DNA of 64,000 nt from Gemmatimonadales bacterium (GCA_033764615.1 JANRIU010000061.1:31090-95089); one strand, 5' to 3'; shown: positions 3,709 through 42,895, counted from the stretch's first letter. Made by a program: numbers and translations. Notes: generated by a model not told the origin, from the letters alone.

Positions 3709-5451
<1,743 letters not shown>

Positions 5452-5521
5452 CGCTGCTCCTCGAAGTGGTGCCGCTCGTGGATCGGTGCGGGGCCGGCGC
5501 CGCCGGACCCCTGGAACACGA

Positions 5522-5608
5522 ACGCCCCGCCGGTGGTGGCGGGGCGTCTCGTTCAGTGCGGGTGGGCTCGGCGACTACACGCTACCGGGCCCGTGGGAGA
5601 CGCCCCGC
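5522..5608 (-). promoter_or_regulatory. Candidate transcription attenuator (alternative antiterminator/terminator hairpins)
   Basis: On the minus-strand RNA, segment A gcggggcgtctc (5608-5597) is perfectly complementary to segment B gagacgccccgc (5549-5538). B also pairs with segment C ggcggggcgt (5531-5522) to form a 10-bp terminator-like stem with loop accacc and tail tcgtgttcc. Confidence 0.4.
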
Positions 5609-5649
5609 GGGTCAGTAAAGAAGTAGCCGTACCACGCCTGTCGCTGCAT
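5575..5649 (-). CDS. Candidate 24-aa aromatic-rich leader peptide
   Basis: atg cag cga cag gcg tgg tac ggc tac ttc ttt act gac ccg cgg ggc gtc tcc cac ggg ccc ggt agc gtg tag translates to MQRQAWYGYFFTDPRGVSHGPGSV. It carries W, Y, Y, F, F within 6 codons and runs through attenuator segment A. I found no clear SD. Confidence 0.35.
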   Translation of the reverse strand: MQRQAWYGYFFTDPRGVSHGPGSV

Positions 5650-5688
5650 TCAGGGAAGGTGCGCGGGGGGCGGGGGGTATGTCAAGGA

Positions 5689-5777
5689 GGGCGGACGAGC
5701 GGACGGGCGGTCGGGCGGACGCGACGGAGCTCCGCCCGTCAGGCGCGTCCGCTCGTCCGCTCGTCCGCCCGTCCGCC
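5689..5777. repeat. Family A inverted repeat
   Basis: G-rich arm gggcggacgagcggacgggcggtcgggcggacg (5689-5722) faces C-rich arm ccgcccgtcaggcgcgtccgctcgtccgctcgtccgcccgtccgcc (5732-5777). It sits in the divergent region between the leader/PDT-DAHPS gene and the OMP gene. Confidence 0.7.
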
Positions 5778-5790
5778 TACCTTCCGCGCC

Positions 5791-6846
5791 ATGCCTCCCC
5801 GCCCGCCTCTCCCCCTCCTCGTCCTCGCCCTCGTCGCCGCGCCGGTCGCCGCGCAGCAGGTGGCGCCGGGGCGCGACTTCACCACGCTCGCCGACGGGCT
5901 GCCGTGGTACGAGCCGACGAACCCGCTGATGCAGGCGCGCTCCGGGCTCGCGTTCATCCCGTACGTCCCCGCGAAGCCCGGCCTGCAGGTCGCGATCTAC
6001 ACCGACTACGCCAGCGCCACCGAGCAGGTGCGCTTCACGGCGCAGAACCGGAACCTGCTCCTCGTCGACGGCGAGTTCCTGCGCCTCGGCGCGCGCCTGA
6101 CCCGCGACCTCTCGCCGCGGGCGTTCCTGCTCGCGGACGTGTCGGTGGGCGGCGCGTACGGCGGCTTCCTCGACGGCTTCCTCACCTGGTACCACGACCT
6201 CTGGGGCTTCCCCACGCCCGACCGCCAGCGCTTCCAGGGCGGGCAGTTCGGCTTCCAGGTCGAGCCGTTCGGCGGCGGCCTCGTCGCCACGGCGCCGACC
6301 AGCGGTCTGCACCTGAACGACGTGCGCCTCGGCGCCGGCTGGCGCCTCGCGCGCGGCGTGCAGCTCGTCGGCTCCGTCACGCTGCCGACGTCCTCCGCGC
6401 CGACCGCCGCGGTCGCGGGCCCGGCCGCCGCGACGGCCGGCACCACGGCGCGCGTCTACTCGCGCGGCACCGTCTCCGTGAACGCGACGCTCACGGGCCG
6501 CACCGCGCTCACGCCCCGCCTGCTGCTCGAGGGCTCGCTCGGCGCGGGCTACACGCCGGCCACGGGCGCCCTCGCCGCCTACCAGGCGACGACGTTCGCG
6601 AGCGCGAGCGCGGGCGGCCGCTGGCGCTTCGCCGGCGCCTTTTCCGCCTTCACCACCTTCTGGTGGCACTCGGCGCCGTACCGCAACACCGCGCTCGCCC
6701 CGCTCGACGACACCGACCTCTCGATCGACGTCGGCTTCCTCGTGCGCCCGCGCCGCGGCCCCGAGTGGACGTTCGCCCTCACCGAGGACCTGAGCCCGAG
6801 CGGCCCCGCCATCGACGCCACGTTCCGGGTCGGCGCGCGCTTCTGA
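5791..6846 (+). CDS. Putative outer-membrane beta-barrel protein
   Basis: In-frame ATG at 5791 gives signal peptide MPPRPPLPLLVLALVAAPVAAQQ. The sequence has alternating beta-strand-like composition and a C-terminal ...FRVGARF ending in Phe. Confidence 0.6.
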   Translation: MPPRPPLPLLVLALVAAPVAAQQVAPGRDFTTLADGLPWYEPTNPLMQARSGLAFIPYVPAKPGLQVAIYTDYASATEQVRFTAQNRNLLLVDGEFLRLGARLTRDLSPRAFLLADVSVGGAYGGFLDGFLTWYHDLWGFPTPDRQRFQGGQFGFQVEPFGGGLVATAPTSGLHLNDVRLGAGWRLARGVQLVGSVTLPTSSAPTAAVAGPAAATAGTTARVYSRGTVSVNATLTGRTALTPRLLLEGSLGAGYTPATGALAAYQATTFASASAGGRWRFAGAFSAFTTFWWHSAPYRNTALAPLDDTDLSIDVGFLVRPRRGPEWTFALTEDLSPSGPAIDATFRVGARF

Positions 6847-11795: not shown

Positions 11796-12304
11796 CGCGC
11801 GGCCTTGCCGTACGGCAGCAGCCGCACCGCCTGCAGGTCGTAGCCGACGAGGCCGTAGGGCGAGTCGCTCTCCGTGATCCTGAGCGTCCCCTCGATCGTC
11901 ACCGCCTGGAACAGGTCGAGGGCGACCGGCTTCCGGTCGGCCATCGTGACCATCACCATCTGGTTGGGCGGGGGCGGCGGCGTGTGGATGCACGCGCCGT
12001 AGTACGGCACCAGCAGGAACTCGTTCCCCTCGCGCAGCCCGTCGTCGAGCGGCACGATGAAGCCGGGGATGCGGACCACCTGGCCGTTGAGCTTGCGCAG
12101 CGTGTCGCTCGGCGTGCCCGTCGCGATGTCGAGCCCGGCGAGGAGGCGCCAGGTGAGGGTGGGCGGCTCGCCGTTGGCGAGCCGGGCGGACGGGCGGACA
12201 GGCGGGCTGGCGGACGGGGTGGTCGACGGCGGTGCCCACGCGTGCAGCCGGGCATGGGGTATCGACGTCAAGGCGAGGAGGAGCAGGACGCAGGCATCGC
12301 GCAT
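11792..12304 (-). CDS. DUF3299-type secreted protein
   Basis: ATG 12304 gives MRDACVLLLLALTS. Core motif FLLVPYYGACIHTPPPPPNQMVMV. A family A repeat arm encodes the linker SPPVRPSARL. Confidence 0.75.
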   Translation of the reverse strand: MRDACVLLLLALTSIPHARLHAWAPPSTTPSASPPVRPSARLANGEPPTLTWRLLAGLDIATGTPSDTLRKLNGQVVRIPGFIVPLDDGLREGNEFLLVPYYGACIHTPPPPPNQMVMVTMADRKPVALDLFQAVTIEGTLRITESDSPYGLVGYDLQAVRLLPYGKAAR

Positions 12305-12341
12305 CGACCGGTCCGCCCGTCCGCTCGACCGCCCGTCCGCC
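12184..12341. repeat. Family A inverted repeat flanking a start codon and signal peptide
   Basis: Arms at 12184-12218 (ggcggacgggcggacaggcgggctggcggacgggg) and 12310-12341 (gtccgcccgtccgctcgaccgcccgtccgcc) bracket the DUF3299 ATG (12304) and its signal-peptide codons. Confidence 0.65.
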
Positions 12342-22392: not shown

Positions 22393-22470
22393 GGCCCCCA
22401 GTCCCCGGCCCTCCGCCCCTGGCCCCAAAAAAAGAGGCCCGGCCACCCCGCACCGGACCTCCGTTCTGAC

Positions 22471-22499
22471 CGCTCGTCCGCCCGTCCGCCCGTCCGCCC
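22471..22499. repeat. Family A C-rich arm only
   Basis: cgctcgtccgcccgtccgcccgtccgccc lies immediately before the SGNH gene stop. Confidence 0.5.
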
Positions 22500-22501
22500 C
22501 C

Positions 22502-23761
22502 CTACGGCGTCTGCCCGATGAACCCGATCGTCCGCCCGTACCGGCGGTTGACGAGCGAGATCAGCGAGTCGGCGAAGATGCGGTGCGCGAGCGAACTCGG
22601 GTGCACGCCATCGAGCGAGAACCAGGTGCCGAACAGCAGGTTGCCACCGGTCTGGGGGCTCGGGAGCGCGGGGAACGGCAGCACCGCGCCGGCGATGGTG
22701 CGCCCCTGCTGCAGGATCGGGTTCGGGTCCATGAACGGCCAGGCGCGCGCCGTCGCCTCGCTCGACAGGTAGGCGTTGTACGCGGCGACGGTGGTCCGCA
22801 GGAAGCGGAACTCGGCGGGCGTCACCACCTGGGCGGTGTTGTTGCAGTCGAGCGTGACGGGGATGTTCCCCGCCGCCGCATTGACGAGCCCGATGCCGAT
22901 CGGCCACGGCACGAGCACCGAGTCCGCGCGGGGCGGCAGGCAGTTCGTCACCGTGAGCGCGGGCGGCAGCGCGGGCGTGATGCCGGGGCAGCCGCCGTTG
23001 CGGAGGCAGTGGTAGAGCGTGCCGGTCGAGGCGTACGGGAGGCTCGAGATGTCGCCGACGCCGATGATCACCGCCTGGGCGCCGAGGATCTGGATCGTGT
23101 CGAGCACCGCCTTCGCCTGCGCCTGGAACGTGGCGACGGGGACGACGAGGGTCGAGTCGCCGGGCTGGGACGCCGCCGGGTTCGCCGTGTTGACGTTCGT
23201 CAGCGAGCCGAGGATCTCGTTGTTGCCGAGCCAGAGCGAGACGAGCGTCGGGTTCGCGGCGCGGAGCGCCTGCAGCTGCGTGCGCCCGCCCAGGATGAAC
23301 TGGGTGAGCTGGTTGGCCGCGGAGGTCGGCGCGAAGTTGTTCGCGGCGTCCAGCATGCGCGCGCCCGGCACCGCGAGGTTGCTGAGGTACGGGAACGCGT
23401 TCGGGCTGCGGAGGCCGCACGTCGTCGCGGCGCCGCCGCCGACGCGCGCCTGCGTCACGTTGATCGTGAACGGCGGCGGGCAGCCGATGCCGGCGAGCGA
23501 CGGGTAGTAGAACGGGATCCGCGCCGCGCGGGCGAAGAGCACGGGGTAGGCGCGCTGCTGCGTCGAGTCGTTGATGCCGCTCGACTGGAAGCCCGCGGTG
23601 ATCGAGTTGCCGAGCGCGACGTAGCGCGTCAGCACGCCGGTGTTGGCCGTGAACTGCGGGTTCGTGATGCCGCTGGGCGCCACCTCGTCGGAGGCGCAGG
23701 CGGCCGCGAGCGCGAGCGCCGCGGGGGCGGCGAAGCGCGGGAACAGCGTCGGGAATCGCAT
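22502..23761 (-). CDS. SGNH/GDSL-family hydrolase lipoprotein
   Basis: ATG 23761 gives MRFPTLFPRFAAPAALALAAACASD (lipobox). Block I is YVALGNSITAGF. The C-terminal GVHPS is a block V-like His. Confidence 0.7.
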   Translation of the reverse strand: MRFPTLFPRFAAPAALALAAACASDEVAPSGITNPQFTANTGVLTRYVALGNSITAGFQSSGINDSTQQRAYPVLFARAARIPFYYPSLAGIGCPPPFTINVTQARVGGGAATTCGLRSPNAFPYLSNLAVPGARMLDAANNFAPTSAANQLTQFILGGRTQLQALRAANPTLVSLWLGNNEILGSLTNVNTANPAASQPGDSTLVVPVATFQAQAKAVLDTIQILGAQAVIIGVGDISSLPYASTGTLYHCLRNGGCPGITPALPPALTVTNCLPPRADSVLVPWPIGIGLVNAAAGNIPVTLDCNNTAQVVTPAEFRFLRTTVAAYNAYLSSEATARAWPFMDPNPILQQGRTIAGAVLPFPALPSPQTGGNLLFGTWFSLDGVHPSSLAHRIFADSLISLVNRRYGRTIGFIGQTP

Positions 23762-25284: not shown

Positions 25285-25446
25285 GGGGGGGCGGACGGGC
25301 GGAAGGGCGGACTGGCGGACGAGCGGACGAGCGGACAGGCGGACGCGATGGCGCGGGGCGTTCCGCCGTTGGCCTTCCAGGAGAGGCGGGACAGCCGGCA
25401 TCACCGGTCCGCCCGTCCGCCCGTCCGCCCGTCCGCTCGTCCGCCC
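25285..25446. repeat. Family A inverted repeat
   Basis: G arm 25285-25346 (ggggggcggacgggcggaagggcggactggcggacgagcggacgagcggacaggcggacg) and C arm 25407-25446 (gtccgcccgtccgcccgtccgcccgtccgctcgtccgccc). Confidence 0.7.
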
Positions 25447-26370: not shown

Positions 26371-27093
26371 TCACCCCACCTGCACCGACGGACAGATCTC
26401 CGCCAGCACGCACGCCCCGCACTGCGGCCGCCGGGCGATGCAGACCTGGCGGCCGTGGAAGATCAGCAGGTGCGAGACGAGCGCCCAGTCGGCCTGCGGC
26501 ACCAGCGGCATCAGGTCGCGCTCGATCTTCTCCGCGTCGGTGTGGCGCGTCAGCTTGAGCAGCCGCGCCAGCCGGGTCACGTGCGTGTCGACGGTGATGC
26601 CGACGTTCAGGCAATACCAGTTGCCGAGCACGACGTTGGCCGTCTTCCGTCCGACGCCCGGCAGCACGCGCAGCGCCTCCATGTCGGCCGGCACCTCGCC
26701 GCGGTGGTCGGCGACGAGCGCCTGCGCCATCGCAATGAGGTTCCTCGCCTTGTTGCGGAAGAACCCGGTCGAGCGCACGAGCGCCTCGACGTCGTCCTGC
26801 CGCGCCGCCGCGAGCGCCGCCGCGTCCGGGTACCGCGCGAAGAGCGCCGGCGTCACCATGTTCACCCGCGCATCGGTGCACTGCGCCGACAGGATGGTGG
26901 CGCAGAGGAGCTCGAAGGCGTCGCGGTGCACGAGCGCGCAGTGCGCATCGGGGTAGGCGGCCTTCAGGCGCTCGAGCGCGCGGCCCGCGCGCTCGGCGCG
27001 GGCGGACAGGCGGGCTGGCGGACGGGCGGAAGCTGCCACGGCCTGCCGACGGTCCGCCCGTCCGCCCGACCGCCCGTCCGCCGCGTTAGCCAC
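26371..27093 (-). CDS. nth: Endonuclease III
   Basis: HhH-GPD motif LRVLPGVGRKTANVVL. 4Fe-4S cluster loop CIARRPQCGACVLAEIC. The N-terminal 30 codons run through a family A repeat. Confidence 0.85.
   Translation of the reverse strand: MANAADGRSGGRADRRQAVAASARPPARLSARAERAGRALERLKAAYPDAHCALVHRDAFELLCATILSAQCTDARVNMVTPALFARYPDAAALAAARQDDVEALVRSTGFFRNKARNLIAMAQALVADHRGEVPADMEALRVLPGVGRKTANVVLGNWYCLNVGITVDTHVTRLARLLKLTRHTDAEKIERDLMPLVPQADWALVSHLLIFHGRQVCIARRPQCGACVLAEICPSVQVG
27001..27082. repeat. Family A inverted repeat inside nth 5' end
   Basis: ggcggacaggcgggctggcggacgggcgg (27001-27029) faces gtccgcccgtccgcccgaccgcccgtccgcc (27052-27082). Confidence 0.65.
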
Positions 27094-32990: not shown

Positions 32991-34427
32991 ATGCCCCCCG
33001 AGAAGCCCCCCGGCGCGCCCGCCGACACGCCCACCGGCGCGCCGCCGCCGCCGCTGCGCGAGCTCGCGTTCATCCCGCTCGCCGTCGCGCTCAACGTGGC
33101 GATGGGCGTGCTCGCGAGCCAGCTCGGCCTCCCCGTCTTCCTCGACACGCTCGGCACGCTCCTCGGCGCGGCGCTCCTCGGCGCGCGCGTCGGCATGGCG
33201 GCGGGGCTCGTGAGCCAGCTCATCACCGCTCTGCAGGTCGGCGCGTTCATGCTGGCGTTCGCGCCGCTCCAGCTGCTCATCGCGGCGTGCGGCGCGCTGG
33301 CCGCGCGCGCGGGCGCGTTCCGCCGCCTGCCGACCGCGCTGCTGGCCGGCGCGCTCACGGGCGCGCTCGCGGGGGCCGTGTCGAGCCGGATCGCGTACAC
33401 GCTGTTCGGCGGCGTCACCGCGCCCGGTGTCTCGATGGTGACCGCCACGCTCCGCGCCCTCGGCCTCCCCCTCGACCTCGCCGTCGCCGCCGCGTCGATC
33501 AGCACGGACGTGCTCGACAAGGTGGTGGTGTTCGGCCTGGTGGCGGGGGTGCTGGCGGGCGGACGGGCGGACGGGCGGTCGGGCGGACGGGCGCTCCTCG
33601 CGGCAGCCGGCGAATCCGTGTGGGACCTTGGCTCCGCCCGCTCGCCCTTCCTTCCGCCCGTCGGCTCGTCGGCCCTACCGCCCGCGCAGCGTCCGCCCGA
33701 CCGCTCGTCCGCCCGTCCGCCCGCGCAGCGTCCGCCCGTCCGCTCGTCCGCCTCCAGCGCCGGCGCGACGGCGCTCGCCCTCACCCTCGCCGTCCTCCTG
33801 CTCGCGTACCTGCTGCCGCCGCCGTGGGGGCCGGTGGGGCTCGCGGGCGTCGTGGCGGTGGCGCTCGCGGGCGCGGGGCAGGCGCGCGCGCTCGGGCGCG
33901 CGACGGCGTTCTGCATACTGCCGTGGGGCTTCCTCGTCGTCATCCACGTGGTGCTCGGCGCGGCGGACGGCTGGACGGTGGCACTGGCGCAGGGGGCGCG
34001 GCTCTACGCGATCCTCGCGGCATCGGCCGCGCTGCTCGCGACGTTCGATGGCAACGCCTTCCTCGAGGCGGCGGCGGCGCGCGGATGGCCGTACCAGCTC
34101 GCGTACCTCGTCGTCGCCGCGCTGCAGGCGATCCCGCGGCTCGCGGCCCGCGCCGAGCGGATCCTCGAGGCGCAGCGGCTGCGCGGGCTCCGCGTGCGCG
34201 GCGGTCCGCTCGTGCGCGCGCGCGCGCTGCTGCCGCTCGCGGTGCCGCTCGCCGTCGGCGCGCTGCAGGAGGTGGACGCGCGCGCCATGGCGCTGGAGCT
34301 CCGTGGCCTCGGCGTCGCGCGCCGCACCGCGATCGCGCCGCCGCCCGACACCGCGCGCGACCGGCTGCTCCGCTGGGGCGCGCTCGCGCTCGTGCTGGCG
34401 GCGCTCGCGTGGCGGGTGCGCGGATGA
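32991..34427 (+). CDS. ECF-type transporter, S-component-like and T-component (EcfT/CbiQ-like) halves in one ORF
   Basis: The N-terminal half is a multi-TM S-like region (FIPLAVALNVAMGVLASQLGLPVFLDTLGT). The C-terminal half is EcfT-like (AQRLRGLRV). The two are joined by about 65 codons of family A repeat with no stop and no canonical restart. Confidence 0.6.
   Translation: MPPEKPPGAPADTPTGAPPPPLRELAFIPLAVALNVAMGVLASQLGLPVFLDTLGTLLGAALLGARVGMAAGLVSQLITALQVGAFMLAFAPLQLLIAACGALAARAGAFRRLPTALLAGALTGALAGAVSSRIAYTLFGGVTAPGVSMVTATLRALGLPLDLAVAAASISTDVLDKVVVFGLVAGVLAGGRADGRSGGRALLAAAGESVWDLGSARSPFLPPVGSSALPPAQRPPDRSSARPPAQRPPVRSSASSAGATALALTLAVLLLAYLLPPPWGPVGLAGVVAVALAGAGQARALGRATAFCILPWGFLVVIHVVLGAADGWTVALAQGARLYAILAASAALLATFDGNAFLEAAAARGWPYQLAYLVVAALQAIPRLAARAERILEAQRLRGLRVRGGPLVRARALLPLAVPLAVGALQEVDARAMALELRGLGVARRTAIAPPPDTARDRLLRWGALALVLAALAWRVRG
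33557..33752. repeat. Family A inverted repeat inside CDS; exact G3N5 periodic tract
   Basis: GGG tracts occur at 33557, 33565, 33573, 33581 and 33589, an exact 8-nt period. The C-rich side (33654-33752) contains a 39-bp direct duplication starting at 33678 and 33717. Confidence 0.8.
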
Positions 34428-35800
34428 GCGGGCTCAGGCTGGACGGCGTGACGTTCACGTACCCGGGCGCCCCCGCACCCGCGCTCCGCGACTGCGACCT
34501 CGCGGTCGAGCCGGGGACGCTCACCTGGCTCCGCGGCGAGGTGGGCGCGGGGTGCAGCACGCTGCTCCTCGTCGCGGCCGGGCTCGCGCCGCGGCACACG
34601 GGCGGGACGCTCACCGGGCGCGTCACGCGCGCGGGCACGCTCGGCTACGTCGGCGCGGAGCCGCGCACGCAGCTCTCGGGCGTCGCCGACACGGTCTTCG
34701 CCGAGGTGGCGTTCGCGCCGCAGAACCTCGGCTGGCCCGCCGACGACATCGTGCGCGCGACGTGGGCCTCGCTCGACCGGTTCGGCCTCGTGCCGCTCGC
34801 CGGCCGGCACCCCGAGCAGCTCTCGGGCGGCGAGCAGCAGCGGCTCCTGCTCGCCGCGCTCGACGTGCTCGCACCGGACGTCTGGCTGCTCGACGAGCCG
34901 ACCGCCGCGCTCGACGCCGAGTGGCGCGAGCGGGTGGAGCAGTGGATGCGGGACGAGGCGGGACGGGGGGCGGCGGTGCTCGTGGCGGACGGGCGGACGG
35001 GCGGACAGGCGGACGGGGATGCGGCGAGCGGTCCGCCAGCGAGGGAGGTGATGCTGGAGGCGGGTCGTGTCTGGCAGCCCCACCCCGCCGCGGCGTCCCC
35101 GCGGGCGTCCAGCCCGCGGGCAGCCGTCCCTGTCCGCCCGTCCGCTCGTCCGCCCGTCCGCCTGAAGCTGGCGGACGCCAGCTTCCGCTACGCCCCCGAC
35201 CGCCCCGTCCTCGACGCGCTCTCGCTGGAGGTGCTGGCGGGCGAGGTGCTGCTCGTGCTCGGGCCGAACGGCGCGGGGAAGAGCACGCTCCTCCGGCTCG
35301 TCACCGCTCTCGCGCATCCCGTGTCAGGCAGCGTGACGAGCGCGGGGCGCGACACGCGGGGGCGCGGGCCGGAGGACCTGGCGGACGTGGTGGGGACGGC
35401 GGTGCAGGACCCCGGCGTGCAGCTCTTCGAGCGCACGGTGCGGCGCGAGCTCGCGTGGGGGCCGCGCGTGCTCGGCTGGCCGCGCGAACGGGCGGCGGCA
35501 CGCGCGGAGGAGGTGCTGGCGCGGCTCGGCCTCGAGGCGGCCGCCGAGTCGCACCCGCTCGACCTCCCGCTCCCGCTCCGCAAGCGCGTCGCGCTCGGCA
35601 CCGCGCTGATGGTCACGCCGCAGCTCCTCGTGCTCGACGAGCCGACCGCCGGCACCGACCCCGCCACGCGCGACCTCGTGGCGCAGGCGATCCATGAGGA
35701 AGCCTCCCGCGGCGCCGCGGTCATCTGCGTGACGCACGACGCGTGGCTGCGGGAGGTGGTGGGGGGGAGGGAGCTGGTGCTGGGGCGTCGCGAGTCGTGA
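34424..35800 (+). CDS. Tandem (A-A') ABC ATPase of the ECF-type transporter
   Basis: ATGA overlap with the upstream gene. Domain 1: GEVGAGCST, LSGGEQQR, WLLDEPTAALD. Domain 2: GPNGAGKST, LPLPLRKRV, LVLDEPTAGTD, VTHD. Confidence 0.8.
   Translation: MSGLRLDGVTFTYPGAPAPALRDCDLAVEPGTLTWLRGEVGAGCSTLLLVAAGLAPRHTGGTLTGRVTRAGTLGYVGAEPRTQLSGVADTVFAEVAFAPQNLGWPADDIVRATWASLDRFGLVPLAGRHPEQLSGGEQQRLLLAALDVLAPDVWLLDEPTAALDAEWRERVEQWMRDEAGRGAAVLVADGRTGGQADGDAASGPPAREVMLEAGRVWQPHPAAASPRASSPRAAVPVRPSARPPVRLKLADASFRYAPDRPVLDALSLEVLAGEVLLVLGPNGAGKSTLLRLVTALAHPVSGSVTSAGRDTRGRGPEDLADVVGTAVQDPGVQLFERTVRRELAWGPRVLGWPRERAAARAEEVLARLGLEAAAESHPLDLPLPLRKRVALGTALMVTPQLLVLDEPTAGTDPATRDLVAQAIHEEASRGAAVICVTHDAWLREVVGGRELVLGRRES
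34984..35162. repeat. Family A inverted repeat inside the tandem ATPase CDS
   Basis: ggcggacgggcggacgggcggacaggcggacgggg (34984-35018) faces ccctgtccgcccgtccgctcgtccgcccgtccgcc (35128-35162). Confidence 0.7.
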
Positions 35801-35860: not shown

Positions 35861-35924
35861 GCCGCTCGCCCGCTCGTCTGCTCGCTCGTCAGACCGCCTG
35901 TCCGCCCGTCCGCTCGTCCGCCCG
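35861..35924. repeat. Family A C-rich arm array
   Basis: gccgctcgcccgctcgtctgctcgctcgtcagaccgcctgtccgcccgtccgctcgtccgccc. It overlaps the 3' end of the PEP-CTERM gene. Confidence 0.5.
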
Positions 35925-37885: not shown

Positions 37886-37920
37886 CCCGTCCGCTCCTCC
37901 GCTTGTCCGCCCGTCCGCCG
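37886..37920. repeat. Family A C-rich arm
   Basis: cccgtccgctcctccgcttgtccgcccgtccgccg lies between two minus-strand genes. Confidence 0.45.
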
Positions 37921-38987: not shown

Positions 38988-39154
38988 AGGCGGACGGGCG
39001 GAAGGGCGGACGAGCGGACGGGCACCGTGGGCGGACGGGCGGACCGGCGGACTGACCGCGCGGCCCGGCCTCCGAAGCTAGCCTCCCGCCCCGATACAGT
39101 CCGCCCGTCCGCCGGTCCGCTCGTCCGCCCATGCAGCCCGTCCGCCCGTCCGCC
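38988..39154. repeat. Family A inverted repeat in a divergent promoter region
   Basis: G arm 38988-39054 and C arm 39099-39154, between the M42 start (38984) and the antiporter start (39166). Confidence 0.7.
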
Positions 39155-40764: not shown

Positions 40765-40866
40765 GCGGACGAGCGGACGGGCGGACTGGCGGACGGGCAT
40801 AGCGCTCCAGACGCCGCACCGGCGCGGGACCACCGTCCGCCCGTCCGCCTGACCGCCCGTCCGCCC
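40764..40866. repeat. Family A inverted repeat between convergent genes
   Basis: ggcggacgagcggacgggcggactggcggacgggc (40764-40798) faces gtccgcccgtccgcctgaccgcccgtccgccc (40845-40866). A further 8-bp hairpin agcgggcc/ggcccgct at 40871-40890 spans the Kir-like gene stop. Confidence 0.7.
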
Positions 40867-42712: not shown

Positions 42713-42895
42713 AGGCGGACGAGCGGACGGGCGGACGGGCGGACTGGCGGACGGGGCTTCGCAGGCGGACGAGCGGACGGGCGGACTGGCGGACGAGGTC
42801 GCGCAGGGATAGTGTACCGAGCGGTAAAGAACAGTCCGCTCGTCCGCCCGACCGCCCGTCCGCCTCATGCGGTCCGCCCGACCGCCCGTCCGCCC
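42713..42895. repeat. Family A inverted repeat with duplicated arms
   Basis: The G side carries two copies of cttcgcaggcggacgagcggacgggcgga (about 42706 and 42757). The C side carries two copies of gtccgcccgaccgcccgtccgcc (42835-42895). It sits in the divergent region with the TetR gene. Confidence 0.7.

Follow-up and report, generated by a model that had tools for sequence, protein, structure and literature searches.

A likely leader-peptide attenuator upstream of the prephenate dehydratase-DAHP synthase fusion gene of Gemmatimonadales

In a Gemmatimonadales bacterium, the gene for a prephenate dehydratase (PDT)-ACT-DAHP synthase fusion protein is preceded by a short reading frame with a run of aromatic codons, and by RNA segments that can pair in mutually exclusive ways. 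Together these are likely to form a ribosome-mediated leader-peptide transcription attenuator, sensing charged tRNA-Phe, tRNA-Tyr, and tRNA-Trp; the fusion gene would then very probably be turned down when aromatic amino acids are plentiful. An attenuator had been proposed at this site in a preliminary description, made from the one sequence, and that interpretation is supported here by comparison of orthologous loci and by computed RNA folds. The same element is found upstream of the fusion gene in all of the orthologous loci with upstream DNA (78/78). Conservation of the short frame and covariation of the stems had been named as a check on the proposal, and both were found: 75 of 79 leaders retain the frame, and compensatory changes are seen in the antiterminator and at the top of the terminator stem. 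Two structural features are added to the earlier account: the leader stop codon lies inside an inner hairpin (H) of the antiterminator, and there is an anti-antiterminator-like fold.

Sequences and searches

The DNA analysed is a stretch of 64,000 nt, here called the window (GCA_033764615.1 JANRIU010000061.1:31090-95089); the element studied lies on its minus strand, and positions are counted from the first nucleotide of the window. Relatives of the fusion protein (337 loci) came from a scan using one genome per species, and the best 80 of the 337 were kept. All of these 80 are from Gemmatimonadales metagenome-assembled genomes (MAGs), and 78 include the upstream DNA. Leader counts given below are over 79 sequences, with the window copy among them.

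A covariance model built from the leader alignment (R1) has a single match in each locus, and in every case the fusion gene follows directly. The window copy is the most diverged of the 79, with an R1 score of 49.5 bits vs. 69-150 for the rest. A model search found no second R1 match in the 64-kb window, so that no regulon is visible within it. A pattern scan of metagenomes with TTTACCNNNNCCGGCGNGGC gave mostly chance matches among the matches listed, and is thus a poor guide to how widely the element occurs among taxa or whether it has other target genes; among the matches listed, real copies account for three of the first 100 loci, all upstream of the same fusion gene.

No Rfam leader family matched window positions 5300-5900 at E values up to 10, and with E values up to 1 allowed, 10 diverse orthologous loci gave no relevant family. 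The same scans gave no covariance-model match to Phe_leader, Trp_leader, or other curated amino-acid leader families, and none to a riboswitch aptamer or T-box; tRNA-like or specifier features were not seen either. A literature search on attenuation or leader peptides in Gemmatimonadetes or Gemmatimonas found nothing relevant.

The fusion gene and its surroundings

3709..5451, minus strand: gene for the prephenate dehydratase - ACT - DAHP synthase (type I) fusion, 580 aa, assigned by Pfam
5457..5462, minus strand: Shine-Dalgarno (SD) sequence GAGGAG of the fusion gene, read from the sequence
5791-6846, plus strand: divergent DUF3187 gene (ATG at 5791), on the other side of the leader intergenic region

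The downstream gene had been taken for a PDT-DAHP synthase fusion with its ATG at 5451, and a Pfam search bears this out, with E values of 1.1e-52 for PDT, 2.5e-08 for ACT, and 3.2e-77 for DAHP_synth_1. Its closest relatives (70-74% identity) have the same architecture and are from Gemmatimonadales, and the combination of PDT and DAHP synthase is common to the best 120 database matches (70-100% identity), Gemmatimonadales-named sequences included. There is no chorismate mutase domain; PDT and ACT run straight into a type-I DAHP synthase. The position of ACT in the fusion protein is one at which a regulatory domain is found in some DAHP synthases, and this ACT domain might exert feedback control over both activities. 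An SD-like motif precedes the fusion ATG in 79/79 loci.

The divergent DUF3187 gene is syntenic across Gemmatimonadales. Adjoining the -35 hexamer of the putative leader promoter (see below) is a near-perfect hairpin of ~100 nt (5684-5785), made up of tandem 8-nt units of GGACGRGC and its complement. The unit has 87 matches in the window, vs. 14.7 +/- 4.3 expected, clustered as inverted arrays. This pattern suggests a REP/MITE-like family of palindromic repeats dispersed through this genome. Further copies lie near the following positions:

12188-12338, 22467-22541, and 25293-25442
27020-27079, 33561-33749, and 34987-35159
35867-35919, 37888-37916, and 38992-39151
40767-40846 and 42717-42891

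The sole hits of the Rfam scans, miRNA matches that fall on the 5684-5785 hairpin, were rejected as spurious products of this repeat. Two other leaders also have tandem repeats just upstream of the -35 hexamer (CCAATGG x4 in L078 and CTGTCGC x3 in L080), and with repeats at the same spot in all three, the site appears prone to repeat insertion.

The leader reading frame

5575..5649, minus strand: leader reading frame of 24 codons and TAG (ATG 5649-5647, TAG 5577-5575), MQRQAWYGYFFTDPRGVSHGPGSV
5617..5634, minus strand: putative regulatory run TGG TAC GGC TAC TTC TTT (W Y G Y F F)

The 24-codon frame at 5649-5575 and its W-Y-G-Y-F-F run (tgg tac ggc tac ttc ttt) were recovered on the minus-strand sequence as first described. 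The run is unique in its surroundings: five or more aromatic codons occur at 5634-5617 and in no other of the 127,968 six-codon windows that the six frames of the 64 kb provide. Homologous leader frames have 23-30 codons, and at least four aromatic residues within six are found in 76 of the 79, with a mean per leader of 2.9 Phe, 1.25 Tyr, and 0.73 Trp. Aromatic residues make up 17.9% of the leaders vs. 6.0% of the fusion protein.

Several features point to a coding element that has been kept across relatives, with drift in its non-regulatory codons. A TTT codon, the last Phe codon of the run, is in frame with the ATG in 75/79 leaders, where chance would give one third, and in 66/79 the stop codons share one alignment column. 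N-terminal residues vary freely, and insertions and deletions come in multiples of three. Of the four leaders that are out of frame, one (L041) differs by a single base from a near-identical, in-frame metagenome copy (L139), and its loss of frame looks like a 1-nt assembly difference.

The last Phe codon itself is invariantly TTT across the 79 leaders; by comparison, the fusion gene in the window has TTT 0 times and TTC 18 times. This invariance would fit either a slow, rare codon or a requirement for the UUUACC:GGUAG pairing described below. Runs of Phe only (e.g., GFFFFT) are seen in the deep-branching leaders L062, L072, L074, L077, L078, and L080, while the window copy and most other leaders have mixed Trp/Tyr/Phe runs; this distribution suggests that the amino acids sensed have been retuned clade by clade.

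The promoter and a probable leaderless start

5680..5685, minus strand: candidate -35 hexamer TTGACA of the leader promoter, read from the sequence
5656..5661, minus strand: -10-like hexamer CACCTT, 18 nt after the -35 hexamer and 6 nt before the leader ATG

TTGAC is found at the same position in 79/79 leaders, with the full TTGACA in about 73, and TTGACA and the ATG are exactly 36 nt apart in 64/79. Most orthologues have a -10-like hexamer of TAnnTT type (TAGGTT, TACGTT, TAGCTT, or TACCTT), which accounts for the failure of a simple sigma-70 scan to call this conserved site. Conservation of the pair argues for its function as the leader promoter.

The preliminary description had counted the lack of an obvious SD sequence before the leader as a weakness. 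The lack is real, with an SD-like motif preceding the leader ATG in just 1/79, but as an objection it is largely answered by the promoter geometry: since 6 nt separate a conserved -10-like hexamer from the ATG, the start is predicted to be leaderless, and hence to lack an SD. Judged by this spacing, the leader is probably translated from a leaderless 5'-AUG. Such a start fits with the rarity of SD use in Gemmatimonadota, Gemmatimonadetes being among the classes with low SD usage (22 in the table; PMC10783764). There are also precedents for leaderless leader peptides, in Sinorhizobium (S. meliloti) trpL (PMC7298713), in C. glutamicum ilvB (PMC11857589), and in the polycysteine short ORFs of mycobacteria (10.1101/834739).

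The divergent DUF3187 gene has a comparable arrangement. A TATCTT hexamer is found upstream of it in 52/75 loci, usually 5-6 nt before its ATG or GTG, and in the orthologous loci this hexamer is about 10 nt upstream of the leader -35; in the window (5778-5793, plus strand) the order is TACCTT, 7 nt, and the DUF3187 ATG. This start geometry suggests that leaderless transcripts are common in the Gemmatimonadales lineage.

The terminator

5514..5554, minus strand: predicted terminator hairpin, -29.6 kcal/mol, with a core formed by 5547-5538 and 5531-5522 and the loop ACCACC at 5537-5532
5531-5522, minus strand: segment C, ggcggggcgt, followed by tcgtgttcc
5512..5521, minus strand: degenerate U tract tcgtgttcca

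The 10-bp stem between segments B and C in the preliminary description proves to be the core of a longer one, extending over 5554-5514. The homologous stem is 89% paired, with an invariant core and covarying pairs near the loop. From its end to the fusion ATG there is a median of 31 nt (25-39 nt in 69/79 loci), and in these 69 loci the space is mostly taken up by the U tract and the SD sequence. No separate promoter would fit there, so that the fusion gene should be expressed only by read-through; on this reading of the sequences, the predicted terminator must be conditional.

The poor U tract that had been noted as a second weakness is a property of the window copy, while the orthologues have canonical tracts. 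Of the 12 nt that follow the GGCGGG core, 5 are U in the window, the lowest of the 79 (tied with L057 and L067), as against 8-10 in 53/79 leaders; the tail reads UUCGUGUUCC in the window and UUUUUGUUUU in the consensus. A terminator scan calls intrinsic terminators in the orthologues and makes no call for the window copy. The gap between terminator and gene is also longest in the window, at 74 nt, and this spacer holds an extra GC palindrome. With its CACCTT -10 hexamer, its 5 U in 12, and the lack of a call, the window copy may terminate inefficiently.

This raises one alternative, that the attenuator family is genuine and the window copy a decayed member of it, with poor termination and constitutive read-through, or with control passing to Rho, mRNA stability, or translation. 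The outlying gap, U count, and scan result are the main reason to entertain it, and the window copy has the lowest R1 score as well. We nonetheless think it unlikely. The other parts of the window copy are intact, including the in-frame ORF, the five aromatic codons, the 12-bp A:B duplex, a compensated H, and the -29.6 kcal/mol stem; and tails of the same GUCGUG type occur in L057, L066, and L067, which suggests that this form is tolerated in very GC-rich lineages.

The antiterminator and competing folds

5597..5608, minus strand: segment A, 5' arm of the antiterminator, gcggggcgtctc, forming a perfect 12-bp duplex with 5550-5539
5539..5550, minus strand: segment B, gagacgccccgc, the strand that pairs with A in the antiterminator and with C in the terminator
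5564..5592, minus strand: hairpin H, predicted by folding inside the antiterminator rod and carrying the stop codon of the leader (5577-5575) at the apex
5572..5629, minus strand: anti-antiterminator-like fold, in which the aromatic codons pair with the stop-codon region, enclosing a hairpin (5611-5590) that sequesters A

Segments A (5608-5597) and C (5531-5522) are where they were originally placed, while B is at 5550-5539 and not at 5549-5538. The perfect 12-bp complementarity of A and B was confirmed. Since B is common to both helices, A:B and B:C are mutually exclusive, as had been proposed, and A:B covaries. In dinucleotide shuffles of 5512-5649, a perfect inverted repeat of at least 12 bp arose in 1 of 1000, and a three-segment switch (one segment able to pair with an upstream partner and with a downstream one) in 0 of 1000.

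The homologous A:B helix is 85% paired across the 79 sequences. When the RNA is ended just before C and each sequence is folded separately, a long A:B rod enclosing H forms in 73/79. The rod was derived from these individual folds, and then tested for covariation. In a MAFFT alignment, not fitted to structure, 82.8% of its cells are paired, vs. 28-47% with slid partners, and 65 cells are compensatory, vs. 38.6 +/- 4.2 in shuffles, of which 0/500 reach 65. A model-fitted alignment, which leans towards the structure, has compensatory change in 14 of the 28 rod pairs, vs. 8.9 +/- 1.5. RNAalifold on the raw MAFFT alignment returned just the terminator core, which is invariant, and a hairpin of A with the 5' half of H (A:H5'), with no covariation. 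The homologous H helix covaries, exchanging CG with GC and UA with CG pairs; in the window H differs in sequence and the hairpin is kept.

Extended by the pairing UUUACC:GGUAG, the A:H5' fold is 90% paired in the orthologues. This anti-antiterminator is present in the full-length minimum-free-energy fold of about 56/79 sequences. It shows no covariation in the 79-sequence alignment, where its columns are near-invariant and thus give no covariation for or against it.

Folding had also been suggested as a means of comparing the two conformers, and in the window this gave -40.7 kcal/mol for the antiterminator rod (5608 to 5539) vs. -29.6 kcal/mol for the terminator; the anti-antiterminator-like fold comes to -28.0 kcal/mol. 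The full window leader prefers the anti-antiterminator together with the terminator (-71.9 kcal/mol), so that an untranslated leader should terminate.

The position of the ribosome was represented by masking part of the leader. With the mask extending to 9 nt past the aromatic codon in the A site, A:B is preferred in the nascent RNA in 74-77/79 sequences, the window included; with the mask extending to the stop codon, A:B forms in 0/79. These computed folds agree with the earlier proposal that a ribosome finishing the leader would mask A. The same description had listed as a weakness that the last Phe codon is only 9 nt from A; the 9-nt mask still allows A:B, which answers this concern. When a generous 12-nt footprint is placed on the final Phe codon, however, A:B persists in only 47/79 and is lost in the window. 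Since a footprint of this size often blocks A:B, the effective sensors are probably the earlier codons of the run. At equilibrium, the terminator remains the preferred fold of the full-length RNA even when the ribosome is stalled, so the attenuator model needs kinetic trapping, as classic attenuators do.

From A through to C, conservation covers every codon position, synonymous sites included, which argues for a constraint at the RNA level. A constraint of this kind would also be consistent with a switch that binds a ligand or protein (riboswitch-like or TRAP-like), the short ORF being incidental, and riboswitches too typically use terminator/antiterminator platforms. Against this, conservation extends to the frame, the position of the start relative to the promoter, the position of the stop, and the aromatic character of the run, with drift in the flanking codons. 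The codon run is the most conserved unpaired feature, no pocket-like conserved unpaired region was found apart from the helices, and neither the window region nor the 10 loci searched matched an Rfam family. A switch of this type thus seems very improbable.

Slimmer still are the prospects of a functional small protein encoded by the ORF, followed by a constitutive terminator and a fusion gene transcribed independently. The C-terminal half of the peptide (xAGAARCPSGVGSV) does look conserved, but this conservation falls on helices A and H5' and is seen at synonymous positions as well; the 25-39 nt between terminator and ATG in 69/79 loci leave no room for a promoter, and in the longer window spacer a simple scan found no promoter-like site. 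As for chance coincidence of an ORF and hairpins in GC-rich intergenic DNA, the folding z-score of the window region is by itself modest (-2.5), but the single occurrence among 127,968 codon windows, the shuffling results for the repeat and the three-segment switch, and above all conservation of the element in all orthologous loci already refute it, and we give it next to no credence.

Proposed mechanism

Returning to a ribosome-mediated attenuator, for the start of transcription, translation of the leader, folding kinetics, and the response to amino acids we infer the following course of events. Transcription from the TTGACA/CACCTT pair would begin at the A of the leader ATG or directly beside it, and the leaderless mRNA would be translated. 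With aromatic aminoacyl-tRNAs plentiful, the ribosome would cross A and the 5' half of H and halt at the stop codon in the H apex; A would then be masked, B would pair with C, and the terminator would halt RNA polymerase before the fusion gene. With one of the aromatic tRNAs poorly charged, the ribosome would stall within W-Y-G-Y-F-F and leave A free, and A, H, and B could zip into the antiterminator rod before C is made, letting the polymerase read through. With no ribosome, the aromatic codons and A would fold onto the stop-codon region as the anti-antiterminator and the terminator would form, making off the default state.

The element may thus be a three-state switch (anti-antiterminator, antiterminator rod, and terminator) in which transcription start itself loads the sensing ribosome. 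Its W/Y/F run may allow a single element to integrate three end products, for a bifunctional enzyme of the first step and the Phe branch. By analogy with rnTrpL and peTrpL of S. meliloti, the terminated leader RNA, which would be abundant, or the peptide may act in trans as well. That all of these hold, so that this would be the first attenuator family defined for Gemmatimonadota, a leaderless three-state switch with a clade-retuned codon mix and a leader RNA or peptide also acting in trans, is a proposition for and against which we see about equal weight.

Comparison with known attenuators

The closest precedents are pheL-pheA of E. coli and aroR-aroF of C. glutamicum (PMC11802643, PMC4046766). 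Like the Gemmatimonadales element, pheL-pheA (found in E. coli and other Gammaproteobacteria, and represented in Rfam by Phe_leader) has a short, Phe-rich leader ORF before a prephenate dehydratase gene, and alternative antiterminator and terminator hairpins, with the choice of fold set by the position of the ribosome (PMC11802643, PMC3082878). The Gemmatimonadales element differs in that it does not match the Rfam model, its run mixes Trp, Tyr, and Phe, its target carries a DAHP synthase and lacks chorismate mutase, its leader has no SD sequence and is probably leaderless, and its antiterminator takes the form of a long rod, inside which a hairpin holds the stop codon.

In aroR-aroF, a DAHP synthase operon is likewise controlled through stalling of the ribosome on a leader peptide with aromatic codons, there Phe-Tyr-Phe (PMC11802643, PMC4046766), and C. 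glutamicum also uses leaderless leader peptides (ilvB; PMC11857589). Compared by its published description, aroR-aroF belongs to Actinomycetota, has a shorter run (three codons, with no Trp), and its target is not a PDT fusion.

S. meliloti trpL and the mycobacterial polycysteine ORFs share with the proposed leader a transcript that begins with AUG, and in these systems translation of the small ORF sets the expression of downstream biosynthetic genes (PMC7298713; 10.1101/834739). They sense Trp only, or Cys, and their RNA structures are unrelated to the Gemmatimonadales element, for which, unlike these ORFs, the leaderless start is predicted from promoter spacing.

What sets the Gemmatimonadales element apart is thus its combination of probable leaderless initiation, a mixed Trp/Tyr/Phe run, a rod that holds the stop codon, and a PDT-DAHP synthase target. 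Given the lack of an Rfam match, and with no paper found on attenuation in Gemmatimonadota, it appears to be an undescribed family of a classic control device.

Significance

Gemmatimonadota are an abundant but barely studied phylum of soil bacteria. The element described here would give them a well-defined cis-regulatory RNA, and would extend classic attenuation of the Yanofsky type to a lineage within this phylum. No concept is overturned by it; it would be a new RNA family, not a new principle. The 79-sequence alignment and R1 could seed such a family, and annotation would gain as well, as ORFs of 23-30 codons are probably too short for routine gene calling. For the organisms themselves, the leader would be a natural case in which one attenuator reads three amino acids on behalf of a fused DAHP synthase/prephenate dehydratase.
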